UHGV virus genome: UHGV-0169021
Origin: a virus
DNA length: 17,190 nucleotides
Strand: one strand, 5' to 3'
In this document: one piece after another, positions 5,376-15,929 of the stretch
Position numbering within the stretch: position 1 is the first letter of the stretch
Layout: the number at the start of each line of letters is the position of its first letter
Notes under the pieces: generated by a model
The model's input: only the letters and a program-made list of their open reading frames with translations
What the model was told of the DNA's origin: nothing
Database searches by the model: none
Translations under genes and position numbers: made by a program

Positions 5376-5402
5376 CAATAAAAAACCCACCGAAGTGGGC
5401 TA
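5376..5402 (-). terminator. Intrinsic terminator directly after the Nun-like gene
   Basis: Minus-strand RNA: GCCCAC-UUCG-GUGGGU followed by UUUUUUAUU; the stem begins within the TAG stop codon. Confidence 0.6.
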
Positions 5403-5732
5403 TGACCATTTTTTATTTGGATTTCGTTGGTGAGCATGATTAACAACTCTGTGCATTACATCCTCATATTTTTCATCTTCAATTTTTTCGACATCGCGAG
5501 GAAATGGTGTTGCTAATGCTTTGTCAACTTTATCCATTGGGTCTTCATTAATCTTATATTCAGGACCGTCATCTATAGCATTAAATCCAGGTGTTACACC
5601 GTTTTTTAATGCATATGCTATCCTCTTTTCCCATCTCGCTATTCTCCTCCTGTCTCGAGATGTAAGACCTCTATCAGATACTTTTCTGTTTTGTCCGCGG
5701 TCAGGATTAACATAAATAGTCTTTTTCACCAT
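5400..5732 (-). CDS. nun: Nun-like transcription-termination / phage-exclusion factor (HK022 Nun family)
   Basis: Arginine-rich motif RGLTSRDRRRIARWEKRIAYALK at residues 22-44 counted from MVKK..., three histidines (HRVVNHAH) and a penultimate Trp (..KKWS), matching the architecture I recall for HK022 Nun. The track start is TTG; ATGs at 5738 and 5732 lie 2 and 8 nt after the N stop. Confidence 0.7.
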   Translation of the reverse strand: MVKKTIYVNPDRGQNRKVSDRGLTSRDRRRIARWEKRIAYALKNGVTPGFNAIDDGPEYKINEDPMDKVDKALATPFPRDVEKIEDEKYEDVMHRVVNHAHQRNPNKKWS

Positions 5733-5740
5733 AAGCATAC

Positions 5741-6046
5741 TCAATAAGCACCGTACGGTAGTTTACTGTACAATTTTATTTTTTGGACTGCATGTATTTT
5801 GTTTCCTAATGGGTTTGAATCCTTGTAATAAATACTTCTATTTTTTCGAACGACTTCTTCTTTCTTCTTGCAGCAAAGGCTTCCTAGTGAAGCTGCTTTG
5901 TCTGCTCTGACGCAACCAGAGAGCTTTAGCGCAATTTTTCGCGCCAGTGCTTCATTACTGCGTCGCTCGGCAATAAGTTCTGCTCTGCGAGCTTTGTAGC
6001 GGCTTTTTGCCGTACCTTTGGATTCTTTCCAGACAATGGTTACCAT
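5741..6046 (-). CDS. N: Antitermination protein N, phi21-type arginine-rich motif
   Basis: Contains GTAKSRYKARRAELIAERR, matching my recollection of the phage 21 N ARM peptide; ATG at 6046..6044 preceded by AAGGAG; first gene downstream of PL and nutL. Confidence 0.8.
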   Translation of the reverse strand: MVTIVWKESKGTAKSRYKARRAELIAERRSNEALARKIALKLSGCVRADKAASLGSLCCKKKEEVVRKNRSIYYKDSNPLGNKIHAVQKIKLYSKLPYGAY

Positions 6047-6156
6047 GATGGTCTCCTTTAAGTGGCTTTGGCGCATGACGCGTCGAGGTGCTTATCTTCT
6101 CGATCGCTGTCTTGCAGCTGCAATTCGCGCCATCCCCAAAACCACTCAAGTTCTGG

Positions 6157-6360: not shown

Positions 6361-7011
6361 TTAAGGAAGGTTTGCTAGCTTGGCATCAACGACAACGCCA
6401 ATGATTTTACAGTTCCCATTGATTTCAATCATTGGGTATTGTGGATTGAGTGGTTTCAGGAATTTTCTACCGGCATCAATAACTAACTTTTTGAATGTCG
6501 CCTCGTTTTCTCCTTCAAGTTTGGCGACTACCAGCTTTCCATTACGTGGTTCGACTTCTGGGTCGACGAGAATAATCATCCCCTCAGGAATACTCAGTCC
6601 TGCCGGGGCAGTCATTGAATCGCCTTTAACGTCGAGCCAAAAAGAGTCTTCAGAACAATCTACCGTTGTGTCGTACCAGTTATCTATTGCACGCCTATGA
6701 TATGGCTCTACAGCTTCCATCCAACATCCTGCGCTTACCCAACTAATTAGAGGATACGAACCTCTTGGATCATGCCTGCTGTGATAGGCAATGTTTGAAA
6801 GACTATCCTCTCCTTTCAACAGGTAATCAGGGGAGCACTGCAAAGCCTTGGCTAAGGCCAATAGGTTTTCGCCATTGGGCTCAGTTTCAGATCGCTCCCA
6901 TTGGGAAATAGCAACATTAGACACGCCAACCATCTTGCCAAGGGCAGCCTGCCTAATCTTGAGTTCTTTTCTGCGAGCGCGAATACGCTCACCCATCAGT
7001 TGTGTATTCAT
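6361..7011 (-). CDS. c2: CI-type repressor (P22 c2-like), HTH plus LexA-like S24 autopeptidase domain
   Basis: 216 aa; N-terminal HTH (...QAALGKMVGVSNVAISQWERSE...), C-terminal GDSM active-site serine region; matches my recollection of P22 c2. ATG at 7011..7009 abuts OR3. Confidence 0.9.
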   Translation of the reverse strand: MNTQLMGERIRARRKELKIRQAALGKMVGVSNVAISQWERSETEPNGENLLALAKALQCSPDYLLKGEDSLSNIAYHSRHDPRGSYPLISWVSAGCWMEAVEPYHRRAIDNWYDTTVDCSEDSFWLDVKGDSMTAPAGLSIPEGMIILVDPEVEPRNGKLVVAKLEGENEATFKKLVIDAGRKFLKPLNPQYPMIEINGNCKIIGVVVDAKLANLP

Positions 7012-7091: not shown

Positions 7092-7277
7092 ATGTACAAA
7101 AAAGATGTTATTGACCACTTCGGAACCCAGCGTGCTGTTGCTAAAGCACTAGGCATTAGCGATGCAGCAGTCTCTCAGTGGAAAGAAGTTATCCCAGAGA
7201 AAGACGCCTATCGATTGGAAATCGTTACAGCTGGCGCCCTGAAGTATCAAGAAAGTGCTTACCGCCAAGCGGCATAA
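7092..7277 (+). CDS. cro: Cro repressor (P22-type)
   Basis: 61 aa, MYKKDVIDHFGTQRAVAKALGISDAAVSQWKE...; GGAG RBS; first gene of the PR operon. Confidence 0.85.
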   Translation: MYKKDVIDHFGTQRAVAKALGISDAAVSQWKEVIPEKDAYRLEIVTAGALKYQESAYRQAA

Positions 7278-7392: not shown

Positions 7393-7689
7393 ATGGCACA
7401 AGCAAGCTACAGCAAGCCAACACAGCGAGAAATTGATCGCGCTGAAACTGATTTACTCATCAACCTGTCAACGCTTACCCAGCGCGGTCTGGCAAAGATG
7501 ATTGGCTGTCATGAATCGAAGATAAGCAGAACGGACTGGAGATTTATTGCTTCGGTTCTGTGTGCTTTCGGAATGGCATCAGACATCAGTCCGATTAGCA
7601 GGGCTTTTAAGTATGCGCTTGATGGACTCACAAAGAAAAAATCCCCGGCTGCCACCGAGGATTCTGAGCAAATTGATATGCAATTCTGA
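7393..7689 (+). CDS. cII: CII-family transcriptional activator (P22 c1 / lambda cII type)
   Basis: 98 aa; C-terminus ...KKKSPAATEDSEQIDMQF parallels the lambda CII C-terminus (KKRPAATERSEQIQMEF) as I recall it. Confidence 0.85.
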   Translation: MAQASYSKPTQREIDRAETDLLINLSTLTQRGLAKMIGCHESKISRTDWRFIASVLCAFGMASDISPISRAFKYALDGLTKKKSPAATEDSEQIDMQF

Positions 7690-7721: not shown

Positions 7722-7868
7722 ATGACAAAACAACTCAGTCCTTACCAGGACAAAATTCACAAACACATACTACGTGATCGCTTCCTGTCCAGCTTCAAGC
7801 AGCCTGGTCGATTCCGGGCTGAGTTGGAAAAAGTGAAGCTGATGCAGAAGGAGAAAGGTCATGAGTAA
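7722..7868 (+). CDS. Small hypothetical protein (48 aa) between cII and the O-like gene
   Basis: Not in the ORF track. ATG at 7722 preceded by AGGAG at 5-nt spacing; its stop overlaps the O-like ATG. Confidence 0.35.
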
Positions 7869-8721
7869 TCTTGCAACCGTAACACATTTAAGGCCTTCAC
7901 AACGGCCTGTGGAGCGTCGTGTGGCAGAAGTTGAAGATGGTTATACCCGTCTTGCAAATGCCCTGTATGAAGAGCTTATCGGCGCAGATTTAACGAAAAA
8001 TCAGAGCAAGGTTGCCCACGCCATATGCCGTAAAACATACGGCTACGGTAAAAAGATGGATCGCATCTCTGATAGTCAGTTAGCTCAAATTACCAGGCTG
8101 CCAAGACAGAAGGTAAACAAGGCCAAGAATGAGCTTATCGCGATGAAGGTTATCCTTCGCGAAGGCCAGCAAATCGGGCCTAACAAGAACATCGAGGAAT
8201 GGCAAATCGAAGGGTGTCACTACTCTGGTGATAATGTCACTGCATTGGTGACAAAAAGTGTCACCAAAACGGTGACAGCGCTGTCACCAAAACAGGGACA
8301 CACAAAAGAAACTATTACAAAAGAAAAAAGAAATAATAAAAAAACTATGTCCGAAAGTGTTCGGACGGAGTGTGAAAAATCACCTGACCGTCACGAAGAA
8401 ACCGACAAGGCATTCGAGGAAATATTCTGGTGTGCAGGCTTGCGGAAAGCCGGGAAGAAAAACGCAGCTTCGGCATTCAGAACACAGTTCAGGGAATGGC
8501 GTAAAACTACCAGGGGGACGGCAAGCGAGTTTGCCACGATGCTGGCAGAAGACATCGTATGCAGGAATGGTAAGCAGTTCGGATTCGACAGGTTGTTACC
8601 ATCGAGCTACCTGAACGGTCAGCGCTGGAACGACGAGAAGCCAGAAACTATTCAACCACAATCCAAACCATCATCCGCAATCACCGTATCGAAAACTGGC
8701 TACGTGTTTTTCGACAGGTGA
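7861..8721 (+). CDS. O: Replication initiator protein, lambda O-like
   Basis: 286 aa; N-terminal region (...[25 protein letters not shown]...) resembles the O iteron-binding domain; origin iterons lie inside the gene. Confidence 0.8.
8215..8348 (+). repeat. Replication origin: four 19-bp dyad-symmetric iterons followed by an AT-rich tract
   Basis: Iterons at 8215, 8235, 8259 and 8282 (e.g. TGTCACCAAAACGGTGACA, TGTCACTGCATTGGTGACA), then an A-rich stretch 8301..8348; lambda-style ori embedded in the initiator gene. Confidence 0.7.
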
Positions 8722-8724
8722 ACC

Positions 8725-8832
8725 ATGAAATCAAAAATCAAATCGCTACTGGTCGCTGGTTATAACCACGGCTGGTTAAGTCTTTCGTTTGTCGATTTCT
8801 GGTTTAAAAATCTCAATCTGAGGGAATCATGA
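8725..8832 (+). CDS. Small hypothetical ORF (35 aa) between O-like and primase-helicase
   Basis: Not in the ORF track. ATG at 8725; its stop overlaps the primase-helicase ATG (ATGA). Weak RBS. Confidence 0.25.
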   Translation: MKSKIKSLLVAGYNHGWLSLSFVDFWFKNLNLRES

Positions 8833-10709
8833 CTCCAAGTGAACTCAGTGACCTGCTTTGGGCGCAGGTTGACAGGGTGGCTCCGCACCTGTTGCCAAAC
8901 GGCAAGAAAGAGGGGCATGAGTGGGTTGCTGGTAACGTCAACGGCGACAAGGGAAACAGCCTTAAGGTCAACCTTAGCGGCAAGAAAAAATGGGCTGATT
9001 TCGCTGAGGGAGACGGCGGTGACATGCTTGATTTGTGGATGGCATGTCGTGGAATTAACCTGCATCAGGCTATGCAGGAAGCGAAAGCCTTTCTCGGTAT
9101 CAAGGATGACGATCACCATTTCGATGCCAAACGTGAGAAGAAATTCTCCAGACCTGATCGCAAGAAAATCGCCCGCTACGTTACCAGAACAGAATCCCAT
9201 CTTGAGTACCTGCAATCGCGTGGCATATCGCCAGAAGTCGTAAAGCGCTACGAGGTTGTCAGCGGAAAGGTGTGGAATGGAGAACGAGAACTGGATGCTC
9301 TGGTGCTTCCGTACAAACGCGATGGTGAGTTGTTGCAGGTCAAGCGAATCAGCACTGAGCGCCCGGACGGGAAGAAAGTCATTATGGCAGAAGGTGATTG
9401 CGAACCTTGTCTGTTCGGATGGCAGGCTCTGGACGCTGGCGTGAGGGCGGTTGTACTTTGCGAAGGCGAAATTGATTGTATGAGCTATGCGCAATACGGC
9501 ATCTCGGCGTTATCCGTGCCGTTTGGTGGCGGGAAAGGCGCTAAGCAACAGTGGATTGAGTTTGAGTATCACAACCTCGACAGGTTTGAGGAAATATTCA
9601 TCTCGATGGACGTTGATGATGTTGGTCGTGAAGCCGCAAGGGAAATCGCAAGCCGACTCGGTGAACATCGTTGCCGTCTTGTTACTCTGCCGTACAAAGA
9701 CATCAACGAATGCCTGATGAAAGGTGTTACCGAGGATGAAATCTGGCAGTACATCGGCACGGCATCCTACTTCGATCCTGAAGAACTCTACAGTGCGCGA
9801 GAGTTTTACCAGGACACTATCAACGCTTTCTACGGCAAGCAGCAGTATCTGTTTAATCCACCGTGGGAATCTCTGGCAGATAAATTCCAGTTCCGTGAGG
9901 CAGAGTTGACGCTGGTCAATGGTGTGAACGGTCACGGAAAAACGGAGGTTGTCGGGCATATGGCACTTGAGGCAATGCGTCAGGGTGTGAAGACGTGCAT
10001 CGCGTCACTTGAGCTGAAGCCTGGTATTCTCCTTAAGCGCCTTACCCGTCAGGCGACGTGCTGCAAGATGCCGCCAGTGCTGGAAATTGACTCTGCATTT
10101 AAATTTTATGACGAAAGACTTTGGGTGTTTGGCCTGACCGGAACGGCGAAAGCCGACAGGCTGATCGAAATATTCGACTACGCTCGCCGCCGATACGGCA
10201 TCCAGTTATTCATCATCGACAGCCTGATGAAATGTGGCATAGGCGACGATGACTATAACGGGCAGAAGGCGTTTGTTGACTCGATTTGCGATTTCAAAAA
10301 CAAAACAAACTCCCACGTCATTCTCGTTACTCACTCGCGAAAAGGTGACAGCGAAGAAAAACCAACCGGGAAAATGGACGTAAAAGGCTCTGGAGCGATA
10401 ACAGACCTGACAGACAACCTTTTCATCATCTGGCGTAACAAGGCTCGCGAGAGAGCGTTACAGAGAGTTCAGAGTGGTGAAAAGATGTCAGAGAAGGACG
10501 AACAGCTACTGGCATCTCCGGCATCTGTTTTGATGCTTGAAAAACAACGTAACGGCGAAGGTTGGGAAGGTGGTGTCCCGTTGTTCCTTGACGAGCAATC
10601 GCACCAGTTCCTGCAACTTGAATCAGGATCGCCATATAGCTACATCGCCAATATGCCGAAATCGGAATATGACGAGGCGTGGCGACAGGAAAACGTGACG
10701 GAGTATTAA
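8829..10709 (+). CDS. Bifunctional DNA primase-helicase (degenerate zinc-finger region, Toprim, DnaB/RepA-like P-loop helicase)
   Basis: 626 aa; N-terminal W-DFA-G-GGD pattern without the cysteines; Toprim-like CEGEIDCMSYAQYG; Walker A LVNGVNGHGKT; Walker-B-like LFIIDSL. Confidence 0.8.
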   Translation: MTPSELSDLLWAQVDRVAPHLLPNGKKEGHEWVAGNVNGDKGNSLKVNLSGKKKWADFAEGDGGDMLDLWMACRGINLHQAMQEAKAFLGIKDDDHHFDAKREKKFSRPDRKKIARYVTRTESHLEYLQSRGISPEVVKRYEVVSGKVWNGERELDALVLPYKRDGELLQVKRISTERPDGKKVIMAEGDCEPCLFGWQALDAGVRAVVLCEGEIDCMSYAQYGISALSVPFGGGKGAKQQWIEFEYHNLDRFEEIFISMDVDDVGREAAREIASRLGEHRCRLVTLPYKDINECLMKGVTEDEIWQYIGTASYFDPEELYSAREFYQDTINAFYGKQQYLFNPPWESLADKFQFREAELTLVNGVNGHGKTEVVGHMALEAMRQGVKTCIASLELKPGILLKRLTRQATCCKMPPVLEIDSAFKFYDERLWVFGLTGTAKADRLIEIFDYARRRYGIQLFIIDSLMKCGIGDDDYNGQKAFVDSICDFKNKTNSHVILVTHSRKGDSEEKPTGKMDVKGSGAITDLTDNLFIIWRNKARERALQRVQSGEKMSEKDEQLLASPASVLMLEKQRNGEGWEGGVPLFLDEQSHQFLQLESGSPYSYIANMPKSEYDEAWRQENVTEY

Positions 10710-12319: not shown

Positions 12320-12495
12320 TGCTTAGCCCATCCCAATCCCTTCAATACCAGAAAGAAAGCGTCGAGCGAGCTTTAACGTGCGCTAACTGCGGTCAGAAGC
12401 TGCATGTGCTGGAAGTTCACGTGTGCTCCGATTGCTGCGCAGAACTGATGAGCGATCCGAATAGCTCAATGTACGAGGAAGAAGACGATGAATGA
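12319..12495 (+). CDS. ninF: NinF-like small Cys-rich protein
   Basis: Not in the ORF track. 58 aa, [58 protein letters not shown]; matches my recollection of lambda NinF. Confidence 0.75.
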   Translation: MLSPSQSLQYQKESVERALTCANCGQKLHVLEVHVCSDCCAELMSDPNSSMYEEEDDE

Positions 12496-12955
12496 GTTAA
12501 TAAATGGCAATGCCATCAAAATGACAAGCATTGAAATCGCTGAGTTGGTTGGTAAGCGTCATGACAATGTGAAACGTACCATAATAAAAAACGGGATAAA
12601 GCACGATATTAAATATGAATATTATGAAAATAATCTAGGATTCAAAGTTAAGCGAGAGGTTTTTGTTGTTGATGCTGATGTTGCTAACGTGTTTAAGCAT
12701 CAGAGAATAGCATTAAATAGATGTGCTGAAACAATAGCATTAACCACCATCGAACAATTACAAGGAGTTAAATTAATAAGGCAATATCCGGTTTTAGATA
12801 AATACCGCATAGATGGCTATGATCCTGTAAACAATATCGCCTATGAAATAGACGAGGAACAACATTTTGCGCCTCAGCATATGGACGCGGATCGCATTCG
12901 CGAGGAAGAGATAAAATCGGCGTTAGGTTGTAAGTTTGTGCGCATTCGCGTTTAA
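12488..12955 (+). CDS. Fusion protein: Rha-type N-terminal domain plus DUF559 (Vsr-like PD-(D/E)xK) endonuclease-fold domain
   Basis: N-terminus IKMTSIEIAELVGKRHDNVKRTI (Rha-like); C-terminus RQYPVLDKYRIDGYDPVNNIAYEIDEEQHF...DADRIREEEIKSALGCKFVRIRV fits the DUF559 pattern as I recall it. The gene is visibly AT-rich relative to its neighbours. Confidence 0.65.
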   Translation: MNELINGNAIKMTSIEIAELVGKRHDNVKRTIIKNGIKHDIKYEYYENNLGFKVKREVFVVDADVANVFKHQRIALNRCAETIALTTIEQLQGVKLIRQYPVLDKYRIDGYDPVNNIAYEIDEEQHFAPQHMDADRIREEEIKSALGCKFVRIRV

Positions 12956-12986
12956 GCGAATACAATTTGCAAACCGGAGAATAGCA

Positions 12987-13712
12987 ATGAGTAATTTAAT
13001 TTGTTTTGATTCCGTTAAGATGTCCAGTATCGAAATTGCCGAACTGGTAGAAAGCCGCCATAGCAATGTAAAAGTATCCATAGATAGATTGGTGAAACGT
13101 GGAGTTATCAAGCCTCCTGCATTGCAGCACACTAACATAATCAATGATTTAGGTGTTATTACCGGGAGGCGTGATTTCTACGTCTTCGAAGGCGAACAAG
13201 GTAAGCGCGACAGCATTATTGTCGTTGCCCAGTTGTCGCCGGAATTCACCGCTCGTCTTGTTGACCGTTGGCGAGAGCTTGAAGAAGCTGCGGTTAATAT
13301 CCCCAAAACGCTACCGGAAGCGTTGCGCCTTGCTGCTGACCTTGCTGAGCAGAAAATGCAACTGGAAAACCAGCTCGCAATTGCCGCACCTAAAGTTGAG
13401 TTTGCCGATCGCGTTGGCGAGGCCAGCGGAATTTTGATTGGAAACTTTGCAAAGGTTGTTGGAATTGGTCCAAACAAACTGTTTGCGTGGATGCGCGATC
13501 ACAAAATCCTTATTGCTTCAGGTTCCCGGCGCAATGTGCCAATGCAGGAATATATGGATCGCGGCTATTTCACAGTGAAAGAAACAGCGGTCAACACAAA
13601 TCACGGAATACAGATATCGTTCACCACAAAAATCACCGGTCGTGGTCAACAGTGGCTGACCAGAAAGCTGCTCGATAACGGAATGCTGAAAGTAACAGGG
13701 GAGGCTGCTTAA
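12987..13712 (+). CDS. Rha-family phage regulatory protein / antirepressor-like (Rha-N plus KilA-C domain)
   Basis: The track start at 12936 is non-ATG; ATG at 12987 follows GGAGAA. N-terminus MSNLICFDSVKMSSIEIAELVESRHSNV; C-terminal ...RNVPMQEYMDRGYFTVKE... looks KilA-C-like. Confidence 0.7.
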   Translation: MSNLICFDSVKMSSIEIAELVESRHSNVKVSIDRLVKRGVIKPPALQHTNIINDLGVITGRRDFYVFEGEQGKRDSIIVVAQLSPEFTARLVDRWRELEEAAVNIPKTLPEALRLAADLAEQKMQLENQLAIAAPKVEFADRVGEASGILIGNFAKVVGIGPNKLFAWMRDHKILIASGSRRNVPMQEYMDRGYFTVKETAVNTNHGIQISFTTKITGRGQQWLTRKLLDNGMLKVTGEAA

Positions 13713-14002
13713 TGGCTAACCTACGCAAAGAAGCGCGCGGCAGAGAATGTCAGGTACGTATTTACGGCGTATGCAATGGCAACCCTGAAACTACAGTTCT
13801 GGCACATTACCGGATGGCTGGAATTTGCGGAACGGGAATGAAGCCTGACGACCTGATCGGCGCATGGGCTTGTAGCGCGTGTCACGATGAAATCGACCGA
13901 CGCACCCATAATCTCGACAACAAAGACGCCAGACTTTATCACCTCGAAGGCGTGATCAGGACGCAGGCGATACTGCTGAAGGAGGGGAAGATTAAGCCAT
14001 GA
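13712..14002 (+). CDS. Cys/His-rich nin-region protein (DUF1364-like)
   Basis: 96 aa, MANLRKEARGRECQVRIYGVCNGNPETTVLAHYR...CSACHDEIDRR; ATG overlaps the upstream stop (TAATG). Confidence 0.6.
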   Translation: MANLRKEARGRECQVRIYGVCNGNPETTVLAHYRMAGICGTGMKPDDLIGAWACSACHDEIDRRTHNLDNKDARLYHLEGVIRTQAILLKEGKIKP

Positions 14003-14361: not shown

Positions 14362-14546
14362 AAGCCACAATTCAAACGATACCAGAGCTTCTTATCCAGA
14401 CACGAGGCAATCAGACCGAAGTGGCGAGGATGCTTTCCTGTGCAAGAGGAACAGTGCTCAAGTACAACCGAGACAGCAAAGGTGAGCGTCACGTAATAGT
14501 TAACGGCGTCCTGATGGTCAAACAGGGCAAAAGGGGAAGGCCATGA
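14358..14546 (+). CDS. ninH: NinH-like small HTH protein
   Basis: 62 aa, ...GNQTEVARMLSCARGTVLKYNRDSKGERHVIVNGVLMV...; ATGA overlaps at both ends. Confidence 0.75.
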   Translation: MKATIQTIPELLIQTRGNQTEVARMLSCARGTVLKYNRDSKGERHVIVNGVLMVKQGKRGRP

Positions 14547-15166
14547 GACTCGAAAGCGTAGCTAAATTTCATTCGCCAAAAAGCCCGATGATGAGCGACT
14601 CACCACGGGCCACGGCTTCTGACTCTCTTTCCGGTACTGATGTGATGGCTGCTATGGGGATGGCGCAATCACAAGCCGGATTCGGAATGGCTGCATTCTG
14701 TGGTAAGCACGAACTCAGCCAGAACGACAAACAAAAGGCTATCAACTATCTGATGCAATTTGCACACAAGGTATCGGGGAAATACCGTGGTGTGGCAAAG
14801 CTCGAAGGAAATACTAAGGCAAAGGTACTGCAAGTGCTCGCAACATTCGCTTATGCGGATTATTGCCGTAGTGCCGCGACGCCGGGCGCAAGATGCAGAG
14901 ATTGCCACGGTACAGGCCGTGCGGTTGATATAGCAAAAACAGAGCAGTGGGGGAGAGTTGTCGAGAAAGAGTGCGGAAGATGCAAAGGCGTCGGCTATTC
15001 AAGGATGCCAGCAAGCGCCGCATATCGCGCTGTAACGATGCTAATCCCAAACCTTACTCAACCCACCTGGTCACGCACTGTTAAGCCGCTGTATGACGCT
15101 CTGGTGGTGCAATGCCACAAAGAAGAGTCAATCGCAGACAACATTTTGAATGCGGTCACACGTTAG
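14543..15166 (+). CDS. Q: Late-gene antiterminator Q (lambda-type)
   Basis: 207 aa; Cys-rich region ...CRDCHGTGRAVDIAKTEQWGRVVEKECGRCKGVGYS...; immediately upstream of the PR' promoter. Confidence 0.85.
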   Translation: MRLESVAKFHSPKSPMMSDSPRATASDSLSGTDVMAAMGMAQSQAGFGMAAFCGKHELSQNDKQKAINYLMQFAHKVSGKYRGVAKLEGNTKAKVLQVLATFAYADYCRSAATPGARCRDCHGTGRAVDIAKTEQWGRVVEKECGRCKGVGYSRMPASAAYRAVTMLIPNLTQPTWSRTVKPLYDALVVQCHKEESIADNILNAVTR

Positions 15167-15251: not shown

Positions 15252-15927
15252 CAGATTTATATCCGTTCACATTCTTTCAGCTTTTACCCACCTCATCTTT
15301 AAGTTCTAAGCGCACTGACATGCGCATCATAAACTCGAGAGCACATAGGAATAGAGCCTGAGAAATATCGCTTTTGGCGACTTCTCTCGTGGTGATATTT
15401 CTATGTCAGCAGGCTCTAATATCTATGTGGTTCGCCTATGTTAAAACGTGAAGATGCATTGAGACTTTTTAATTACAATCCAGATACTGGAATTCTTACA
15501 TGGAAGAATCCACCTCGGTCCTCTAGATTTATCTATGGCGCTGTTGTTGGCTATAAAACAAATGGATATCTGCAGGTAAAACTTTATGGAATGCGGCTAT
15601 ATGTCCATAGAATTGCATGGCTGATGGTTTACAATGATTGGCCAACCGATGTTATTGACCATATTAATGGTGATAGGTCTGATAACCGGATAGCCAATCT
15701 TCGTGTTGTTACTAACACTCAAAACTCATGGAACAGCAAGATGAGGAAAAACAATTCATCTGGTGTGAAGGGGGTGACTTTTAATTCTGCTGCAAACAAG
15801 TGGGTTGGAAGAATTAGAGTTAATGGTAAAAGGATTCATGTAGGGTGTTTTGACGATATCGAGGAGGCTAGAAAGGCAATGGAAAATGCCAGGATAAAAT
15901 ATCATGGTGAATTCTCCAGTATGGGAT
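15252..15927 (+). mobile_element. AT-rich inserted cassette carrying an HNH endonuclease gene within the PR'-tR' leader
   Basis: Lambda-like PR' sequence stops after AGAATGG (15245..15251) and resumes at AGATGGGTTAATTCGC (15928 onward); the intervening roughly 680 bp is AT-rich and flanked by the imperfect direct repeat AGAATGG / AGATGGG. Boundaries approximate. Confidence 0.5.
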
Positions 15928-15929
15928 AG
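15438..15929 (+). CDS. HNH homing-type endonuclease with AP2-like DNA-binding domain
   Basis: 163 aa; HNH motif VIDHINGDRSDNRIANLRVVTNTQNSWN; AP2-like SGVKGVTFNSAANKWVGRIRVNGKRIHVGCFDDIEEARKA. Confidence 0.8.
   Translation: MLKREDALRLFNYNPDTGILTWKNPPRSSRFIYGAVVGYKTNGYLQVKLYGMRLYVHRIAWLMVYNDWPTDVIDHINGDRSDNRIANLRVVTNTQNSWNSKMRKNNSSGVKGVTFNSAANKWVGRIRVNGKRIHVGCFDDIEEARKAMENARIKYHGEFSSMG

Follow-up and report, generated by a model that had tools for sequence, protein, structure and literature searches.

A T7 gp4/Twinkle-type primase-helicase with a predicted ligand-less DnaG-type domain in the ES18-type replication module of a lambdoid prophage

The primase-helicase and its N-terminal domain

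We analysed a stretch of 17,190 nucleotides from the virus genome UHGV-0169021 (hereafter, the window), focusing on the open reading frame (ORF) at 8829..10709 on the plus strand, which starts with ATG and encodes 626 amino acids (aa). This ORF is a real, full-length primase-helicase of the T7 gp4/Twinkle type, encoded as one polypeptide. It lies in the early-right operon of a lambdoid prophage, after an O-like initiator gene with iterons and an A/T-rich tract. In this lambdoid replication module of the ES18 type, we consider it likely to serve as the replicative primase-helicase, with the loader-free, self-priming mechanism that we propose below. The arrangement as such is already known, the ES18/mEp043-type replication cassette and its replacement of P/DnaB being in the literature.

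The PHROG 239 profile 'DNA primase/helicase' matches the protein end to end (aa 2-622, E 2e-171), with Pfam Toprim_2 at aa 209-296 (E 3e-12). Over aa 355-594, AAA_25 reaches 28.0 bits against a cut-off of 27, and DnaB_C, at 23.8 bits, stays under its cut-off of 27. Among PDB sequences, phmmer gave T7 gp4 as the best match (5ikn, 6n7i, 1q57; E about 1e-22, aa 191-539), and Twinkle 8e2l was matched at E 5e-14. A full-length AlphaFold2 model, built on a 101-sequence alignment, had a mean predicted local distance difference test score (pLDDT) of 89.3; Foldseek placed the T7 gp4 chain 5ikn_J first (E 2e-27, template modelling (TM) scores 0.58/0.73, 503 columns), followed by other gp4 and Twinkle chains, whereas DnaB structures ranked about thirteen orders of magnitude worse (E ~1e-14 vs ~1e-27 for gp4). 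A DnaB N-terminal domain was not found in the protein, which accordingly does not have the make-up of the DnaB family (P22 gp12 type); rather, a primase and a superfamily 4 (SF4) helicase are joined by a linker in a single chain, as is typical of T7 gp4 and Twinkle. A preliminary description made from the sequence alone had placed the ORF at exactly these coordinates, with the same length, and had read it as a fusion of a DnaG-like region, a Toprim domain and a DnaB/RepA-like helicase. The fusion holds in the Pfam, PHROG, PDB and Foldseek comparisons, and the domain searches recover both Toprim and primase folds, but the DnaB label has to give way to the better-fitting T7 gp4/Twinkle-type SF4 helicase.

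The domain boundaries and active-site residues follow from alignment with T7 gp4, the roles of whose aligned catalytic residues are established. The primase RNA-polymerase domain (RPD; 9126..9722, plus strand), delimited by this alignment and Toprim_2, comprises an N-terminal subdomain (aa ~100-200) and the Toprim domain (aa 207-298); T7 gp4 E157, E159 and D161 correspond to E212, E214 and D216 of the window protein, D207 and D209 to D261 and D263, and D237 to D291. The hexameric SF4 helicase domain (aa 355-594; 9891..10610, plus strand), placed by the same alignment and the AlphaFold2 model, contains Walker A at G365-T372 (K371), E395, Walker B D464, H502 and K519, aligned with T7 gp4 K318, E343, D424, H465 and R522, respectively; PDB entry 6n7i is described as an E343Q mutant. 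Two alignments were used to gauge conservation, one of 60 representatives that share ~30-60% identity with the window protein and the other of 101 sequences. In the larger one, all six acidic residues of the Toprim domain are invariant; among the 60 representatives, D216 and D263 are not fully so. The helicase residues K371, E395, D464 and H502 vary little or not at all. By these alignments, both the primase and the helicase catalytic residues are conserved across the family. The poorly conserved C-terminal tail (10611..10709, plus strand) has a helix predicted at aa 611-622 in the full-length model, and its end is acidic/aromatic (...SEYDEAWRQENVTEY); with the tail of T7 gp4 in mind, we speculate that it might bind a polymerase or a single-stranded DNA-binding protein (SSB).

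The first 95 residues (8829..9113, plus strand) are predicted to form a DnaG-type zinc-binding-domain (ZBD) fold without the zinc ligands. An AlphaFold2 model of aa 1-110 (pLDDT 85, from 101 diverse fragments) retrieved, as its top Foldseek match, the Bacillus stearothermophilus DnaG ZBD 1d0q_A (E 7.6e-4, probability 1.00, TM 0.58/0.62, 94 columns), and, as its second, the Aquifex DnaG ZBD-RPD structure 2au3 (E 9e-3, probability 1.00), the next match lying at E 1.9; the top two thus point to a DnaG-type zinc-ribbon fold with flanking helices. At the sequence level, Pfam Zn_ribbon_DnaG gave sub-threshold matches in 14 of 50 family members (best E 7e-4), including the window protein at E 0.066 (aa 26-92 against profile positions 26-92), whose PF01807 score was 13.5 bits against a gathering threshold of 24.9. 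A profile of the N-terminal 100 residues returned only noise from PDB sequences (RluF, xylose isomerase; E > 0.7), and the relationship to the DnaG ZBD is visible only via sub-threshold Pfam matches, hhalign and structure prediction.

In hhalign, the family profile aligned with E. coli DnaG residues 1-150 over 68 columns at a pairwise E of 0.005; with a template of one sequence, the probability was only 7%. This alignment pairs the DnaG ligands C40, H43, C61 and C64 with G35, N38, D57 and E60 of the window protein. An identical mapping was obtained with MAFFT, in an alignment that took in three viral primase-helicases (L067, L070, L072) with an intact CCPFHNEK...YKCFGCG. We then followed these columns through 106 aligned sequences. 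The first ligand position (35) is Gly in 102 and Ala in four; the second (38) is variable, with 12 His and no Cys; the third (57) is Asp in 101 and Glu in five; and the fourth (60) is occupied by T/S/G/A/E. None of the 106 sequences has Cys or His at positions 35, 57 or 60, and neither CHC2 ligands nor an N-terminal Cys4 zinc ribbon (primase motif I) is present. In contrast to this loss, S44 is invariant and D57, F58, D65 and W70 are invariant or nearly so in the family. The alignments thus indicate that, throughout the family, all four zinc ligands are missing from a ZBD-like domain that is otherwise strongly conserved.

The preliminary description had likewise seen a cysteine-less, zinc-finger-like N-terminus with a W-DFA-G-GGD pattern, and would have been contradicted by intact Cys/His ligands on alignment. 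Both the loss of cysteines and the DnaG fold are borne out, the latter by AlphaFold2 and Foldseek, and the pattern is real: aa 55-65 read WADFAEGDGGD, an instance of the family-wide motif W-x-D-F-A-x-G-x-x-G-D. Across 105 full-length representatives of 50%-identity clusters, the N-terminal consensus is LLPxGKRxGxEW-x-x-GS-x-x-GE-x-G-x-SLKV-x-L-x-G-x-KAGVW-x-DFA-x-G-x-x-GDLLDLW. As a peculiarity of their own, the window protein and its close relatives are without two residues (G-V) of the near-invariant K-A-G-V-W hairpin, reading KKK--WADF (8985-8999, aa 53-57). A ZBD-less short form made from an internal start, as with T7 gp4B, was also considered; no Met occurs between residues 83 and 185 of the window protein.

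The family is large: with the N-terminal region as query, matches at E <= 1e-3 fall into 2740 clusters at 50% identity, a number that drops to 710 when E <= 1e-10 is required. Relatives at 23-27% identity have N-termini with T7-type CxxC...CxxC or DnaG-type CHC2 ligands; because these more distant relatives keep Cys4 or CHC2 ligands, the ligand loss is derived. A separate set of viral contigs (L050-L053, L066) encodes intermediate primase-helicases, at 24-31% identity, with a further diverged ligand-less N-terminus (YFPDAKKRGNNYEMGDLDGNKGSSCGVF...), so that the zinc-less form may predate the present family or extend beyond it. An alternative Cys/His site composed of C33, H48, H20, H30, C73 and H79 was also considered and rejected, none of these positions being conserved.

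Initiator, origin and the intervening 35-residue ORF

The O-like replication initiator (286 aa; 7861..8721, plus strand) matches Pfam Phage_rep_O at aa 20-114 (E 3e-38) as well as TIGR01610; PHROG 277 corresponds to its N-terminal part and PHROG 33384 to aa 158-286. Judged from these profiles, its N-terminal origin-binding domain is of the lambda O type, and its C-terminal domain is not of the lambda P-binding type. Inside the gene, a repeat search located three clear copies of a 19-nt palindromic iteron, TGTCAC-N7-GTGACA (8235-8253, 8259-8277 and 8282-8300, spaced by 24 and 23), and a degenerate extra copy at 8215-8233, in agreement with the O-like gene with embedded iterons noted previously. 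The adjoining A/T-rich tract, AAAAGAAACTATTACAAAAGAAAAAAGAAATAATAAAAAAA (8304-8345), is presumed, by analogy with the layout of lambda ori, to be the unwinding element.

Contrary to what the preliminary description implied, primase-helicase and initiator are not immediate neighbours. The order of the two genes is as it stated, but a conserved 35-aa ORF (MKSKIKSLLVAGYNHGWLSLSFVDFWFKNLNLRES; 8725..8832, plus strand) that it had missed lies between them. This ORF matches PHROG 21848 (E 2.6e-25), is the equivalent of ES18 gp60, and its stop overlaps the start codon of the primase-helicase gene (ATGA), by which the two are translationally coupled. We surveyed its occurrence, together with that of the initiator domains, in the neighborhoods of 80 viral loci retrieved with the primase-helicase profile. 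It stands directly upstream in 14/14 loci of the enterobacterial clade (primase-helicase identity ~58% or more), whatever the initiator type, and is absent from the more distant loci of the survey (below ~58%). In distant relatives, the initiator gene ends at or overlaps the primase-helicase start.

The same survey drew attention to the C-terminal domain of the initiator (aa 171-286; 8371..8718, plus strand). Profile comparison with hhalign indicates homology (probability 94.5%, E 8e-8, 71 columns) to an 'FxxFWxxYPKK...TWLNxxRWxD' domain, which forms the C-terminus of 13 proteins that are not otherwise alike and whose genes immediately precede those of distant primase-helicase family members, as at 3654-3930 in L016 and 3636-3900 in L033 (window counterpart 8371-8640, plus strand). 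Where these proteins show any Pfam match it is a weak, helix-turn-helix (HTH)-type one (L016), and most show none. Likewise, the window-type C-terminal domain is kept in loci where the N-terminal domain has been swapped or is undetectable (L003, L005, L012, L039). Iterated hidden Markov model searches with the C-terminal domain, at an intentionally large database size (Z = 1e6), found close relatives only, and profile-profile comparison was needed for the FxxFWxxYPKK link.

At its extreme C-terminus, the initiator bears a 13-residue tail (8680..8718, plus strand) with the motif V-S-[KQN]-x-G-Y-V-[FY], recognized by locus comparison. All loci with a primase-helicase of at least 70% identity have the motif, L039 in the variant form SNGLVFY, and it also ends the HTH_36-type initiators of L006 (3857-3886) and L009 (3851-3883), which share nothing else with the O protein of the window. 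Because the tail codons differ between loci (Ser TCG vs AGC/AGT), the tail is conserved at the protein level, and for the same reason we rejected the view of it as a mere mosaic junction at the DNA level. We regard the tail (VSKxGYVF) as a candidate docking peptide for the primase-helicase. The pattern as a whole fits a modular initiator, in which a swappable DNA-binding head would be combined with a tail end matched to the primase-helicase.

Proposed mechanism and its alternatives

We propose that the initiator, bound to the iterons by its lambda O-like N-terminal domain, melts the A/T-rich tract, and that its C-terminal domain and VSKxGYVF tail bring in the primase-helicase, perhaps together with the 35-aa protein. 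The primase-helicase would then load itself as a ring on the exposed single strand, in the manner of T7 gp4 and Twinkle, without lambda P, DnaC or host DnaB. Lagging-strand primers would be made by the fused primase and not by host DnaG, since the protein is without the DnaB N-terminal domain for DnaG docking, and the metal-free ZBD-like domain would still handle template or primer. That no loader is needed is a reasonable inference from the parallel with T7 gp4 and Twinkle. Four points weigh against this scheme as a whole. Chief among them is the doubt whether priming is feasible with a zinc-free ZBD; the likeness to the DnaG ZBD is weak by sequence (7% in hhalign, sub-threshold in Pfam) and rests mainly on predicted structure; the T7 arginine finger R522 is a Lys here (K519), as in at least 90% of the family; and no experiment on any member of the primase-helicase family was found in the literature.

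The doubt about priming leads directly to an alternative in which the protein is a helicase only, its primase being dead and its primers being supplied by host DnaG or by transcripts that RNA polymerase makes at the origin. DnaG docks on the N-terminal domain of DnaB, and the window protein has no such domain, which speaks against priming by the host enzyme. A precedent for a dead primase does exist in metazoan Twinkle, which lost three of its four ZBD cysteines along with its primase activity (PMC7231222), and here all four ligands are gone. In a dead primase, however, one would not expect six Toprim acidic residues to stay invariant or nearly so across representatives that are only ~30-60% identical, nor the ZBD-like domain to remain under the constraint seen at S44, D57, F58, D65 and W70. 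Because the Toprim site and the ZBD-like domain are both strongly constrained, the alignments argue for primase activity of the window protein, and a helicase-only role seems rather unlikely to us. In a second alternative, the domain still binds metal through non-canonical ligands, either the near-invariant D57 together with S/D/N36 and T/S/E60 or, in some members, C33 together with H/C48. D57 falls exactly at the position of DnaG C61 and is acidic throughout, and Cys is found at position 33 in 28/106 sequences and Cys or His at position 48 in 54/106. Positions 33 and 48, however, are neither conserved nor ligand positions, and are V33 and N48 in the window protein; the first ligand position is almost always Gly, and Asp, Ser and Gly do not form a structural zinc site. 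We thus consider metal binding of this kind very improbable, and favor an active primase with a metal-free domain.

Loading, the other half of the proposed mechanism, might also not be autonomous, if a loader or adaptor, be it the 35-aa protein or a host factor, mediates between initiator and helicase. The translational coupling of the 35-aa ORF and its constant presence in the enterobacterial clade, even with another initiator type, lend this idea some weight. Against it, the ORF is absent from all relatives beyond ~58% identity, and its product resembles no known loader. T7 gp4, moreover, loads itself. Self-loading is likewise described for Twinkle in a preprint (bioRxiv 10.1101/2022.08.11.503323). 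Taking these points together, we judge a dedicated adaptor or loader to be distinctly unlikely and retain self-loading as the preferred account. Extending both halves of the mechanism to the entire family of 2740 clusters, which spans phages, prophages and possibly integrative elements, would mean that its members prime with a metal-free DnaG-type domain and are also recruited, loader-free, by a portable C-terminal domain and a VSKxGYVF tail on unrelated initiators; this combined generalization we offer as a tentative one.

Genomic setting and relation to known systems

PHROG assignments identify the window as the immunity and early region of a lambdoid prophage. The minus strand carries an excisionase-like gene, a recombination module of Abc2, SSB and Erf, and anti-restriction, Nun-like and N-like genes, together with a cI-type repressor gene (6361-7011). 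On the plus strand, cro (7092-7277) and cII (7393-7689) are followed by the O-like gene with its internal origin, the 35-aa ORF, the primase-helicase gene and then, 3' of the latter, the nin-region genes NinB, Ant-like, HNH and RusA, an order that is that of the ES18-type module from cII to the nin region. Q (14543-15166) comes next, and a second HNH gene and a holin gene lie after it. None of the 38 scanned ORFs of the 17-kb window is a lambda P, DnaC-like or DnaB-like gene, which upholds the preliminary description in its view that a P or DnaB-type partner is absent. Rfam (at gathering thresholds) and ARAGORN returned no matches and no tRNA genes in the window.

Several neighboring genes merit separate mention. 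The phage SSB (2920-3303, minus strand) lies within the ES18-type recombination module (Abc2, SSB, Erf), and one may speculate, by analogy with gp2.5 in T7, that it partners the gp4-like primase-helicase. The gene for a Nun-like transcription termination factor (5400-6076, minus strand; PHROG 5632, E 5e-71) is immediately downstream of the N-like antiterminator gene. In the nin region, at 12488-13712 (plus strand), two adjacent overlapping Ant-like ORFs of 155 and 258 aa, both assigned to PHROG 63 and with a lower G+C content of about 0.42, could represent a duplicated or disrupted anti-repressor moron. Of the two HNH endonuclease genes, one (13712-14002, plus strand) abuts RusA, and the other (15438-15929, plus strand), between Q and the holin gene, occupies the position of the Shiga toxin genes in Shiga toxin (Stx) phages.

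The module has many close relatives. The primase-helicase is 99.8% identical to the phage mEp043 protein, and the DNA of the module has 98.7% identity to mEp043 and Sf101 over the aligned stretch and ~89% to ES18 positions 36812-40844. At >= 95% identity, the gene is carried by 296 of 5426 complete E. coli genomes, and 90 phage records contain a match over at least 80% of the protein. The GenBank record of ES18 (genome paper 2005) already describes gp59 as resembling lambda gpO and places a rep_origin 'similar to lambda ori' inside its gene; gp60 is entered there as a 35-aa protein without a known function, and gp61 is called a 'putative primase/helicase; similar to phage T7 gene 4'. A 2023 paper, in its comparison of P22-like phages, distinguishes three types of replication module, of which an O-like gene with a primase-helicase is one (PMC10307801), and the epsilon34 paper notes an ES18-type replication region (PMC2629481). 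We also considered the Stx-phage Eru papers (PMC8044961, PMC8951638) as a possible account of the ES18-type module, which is not covered in the parts consulted; their Eru1B is a different, 323-aa Toprim protein. None of three features, namely the ligand-free ZBD, the C-terminal domain common to the initiators and the VSKxGYVF tail motif, was found described in a limited literature search.

As such, the gene and the module add nothing new, being an ES18/mEp043-type cassette that is widespread in prophages of E. coli and Salmonella, Stx phages among them. The remaining interest, which is modest, lies in a family-wide, metal-free DnaG-type ZBD in a seemingly active primase and in a candidate motif for docking between initiator and helicase. 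If the primase is active, the family would constitute a natural experiment on the purpose of zinc in primase ZBDs, and metal-free priming, if true, would run counter to the common view that DnaG-type primase function needs zinc coordination. Similarly, the initiator tail and C-terminal domain offer a simple handle on the hand-off from initiator to helicase in an apparently loader-free system; were recruitment through them true, they would provide a defined, mutable contact for studying how an origin is passed to a self-loading ring helicase. If the module does without host DnaB, DnaC and DnaG, this would also bear on the induced replication of such prophages, some of which carry Shiga toxin genes.

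Set against known systems, the window shows no difference of substance from the ES18-type module: gp59-gp60-gp61 of ES18, and the corresponding genes of mEp043, Sf101, SEN22, epsilon34 and the Stx phages 24B and Min27, have the gene order of the window and a 626-aa primase-helicase, and the window is a further copy in an E. coli prophage. With lambda O/P and P22 gp18/gp12 it shares the operon position, the O-type N-terminal origin-binding domain and the iterons inside the gene, but it is without a P-type loader or a DnaB-type helicase, and the C-terminal domain of its initiator is that of PHROG 33384. The likeness to T7 gp4 extends over the whole single chain of ZBD, RPD/Toprim, linker and SF4 helicase, with aligned catalytic residues. 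In contrast, overall identity is ~21%, the arginine finger R522 corresponds to K519, and the N-terminal domain is a ~95-residue, DnaG-type ligand-less fold with flanking helices instead of a short Cys4 ribbon; moreover, the window protein belongs with an initiator-bound origin in a temperate phage, whereas T7 uses a transcription-primed origin. Metazoan Twinkle resembles it in being gp4-like and in having lost ZBD ligands (three of four cysteines there, all four ligands here), but is without primase activity, whereas the window family retains the invariant Toprim acidic residues and a conserved DnaG-type ZBD-like domain. Finally, the DnaG ZBD itself (PF01807, 1D0Q, 2AU3) matches the N-terminal domain in predicted fold (probability 1.00) and in collinear sequence, including the helix start G-x-x-G-D/N-x-[IL]-D-[FL], and differs from it in its CHC2 ligands, which are replaced by G, N, D and E in the window protein.

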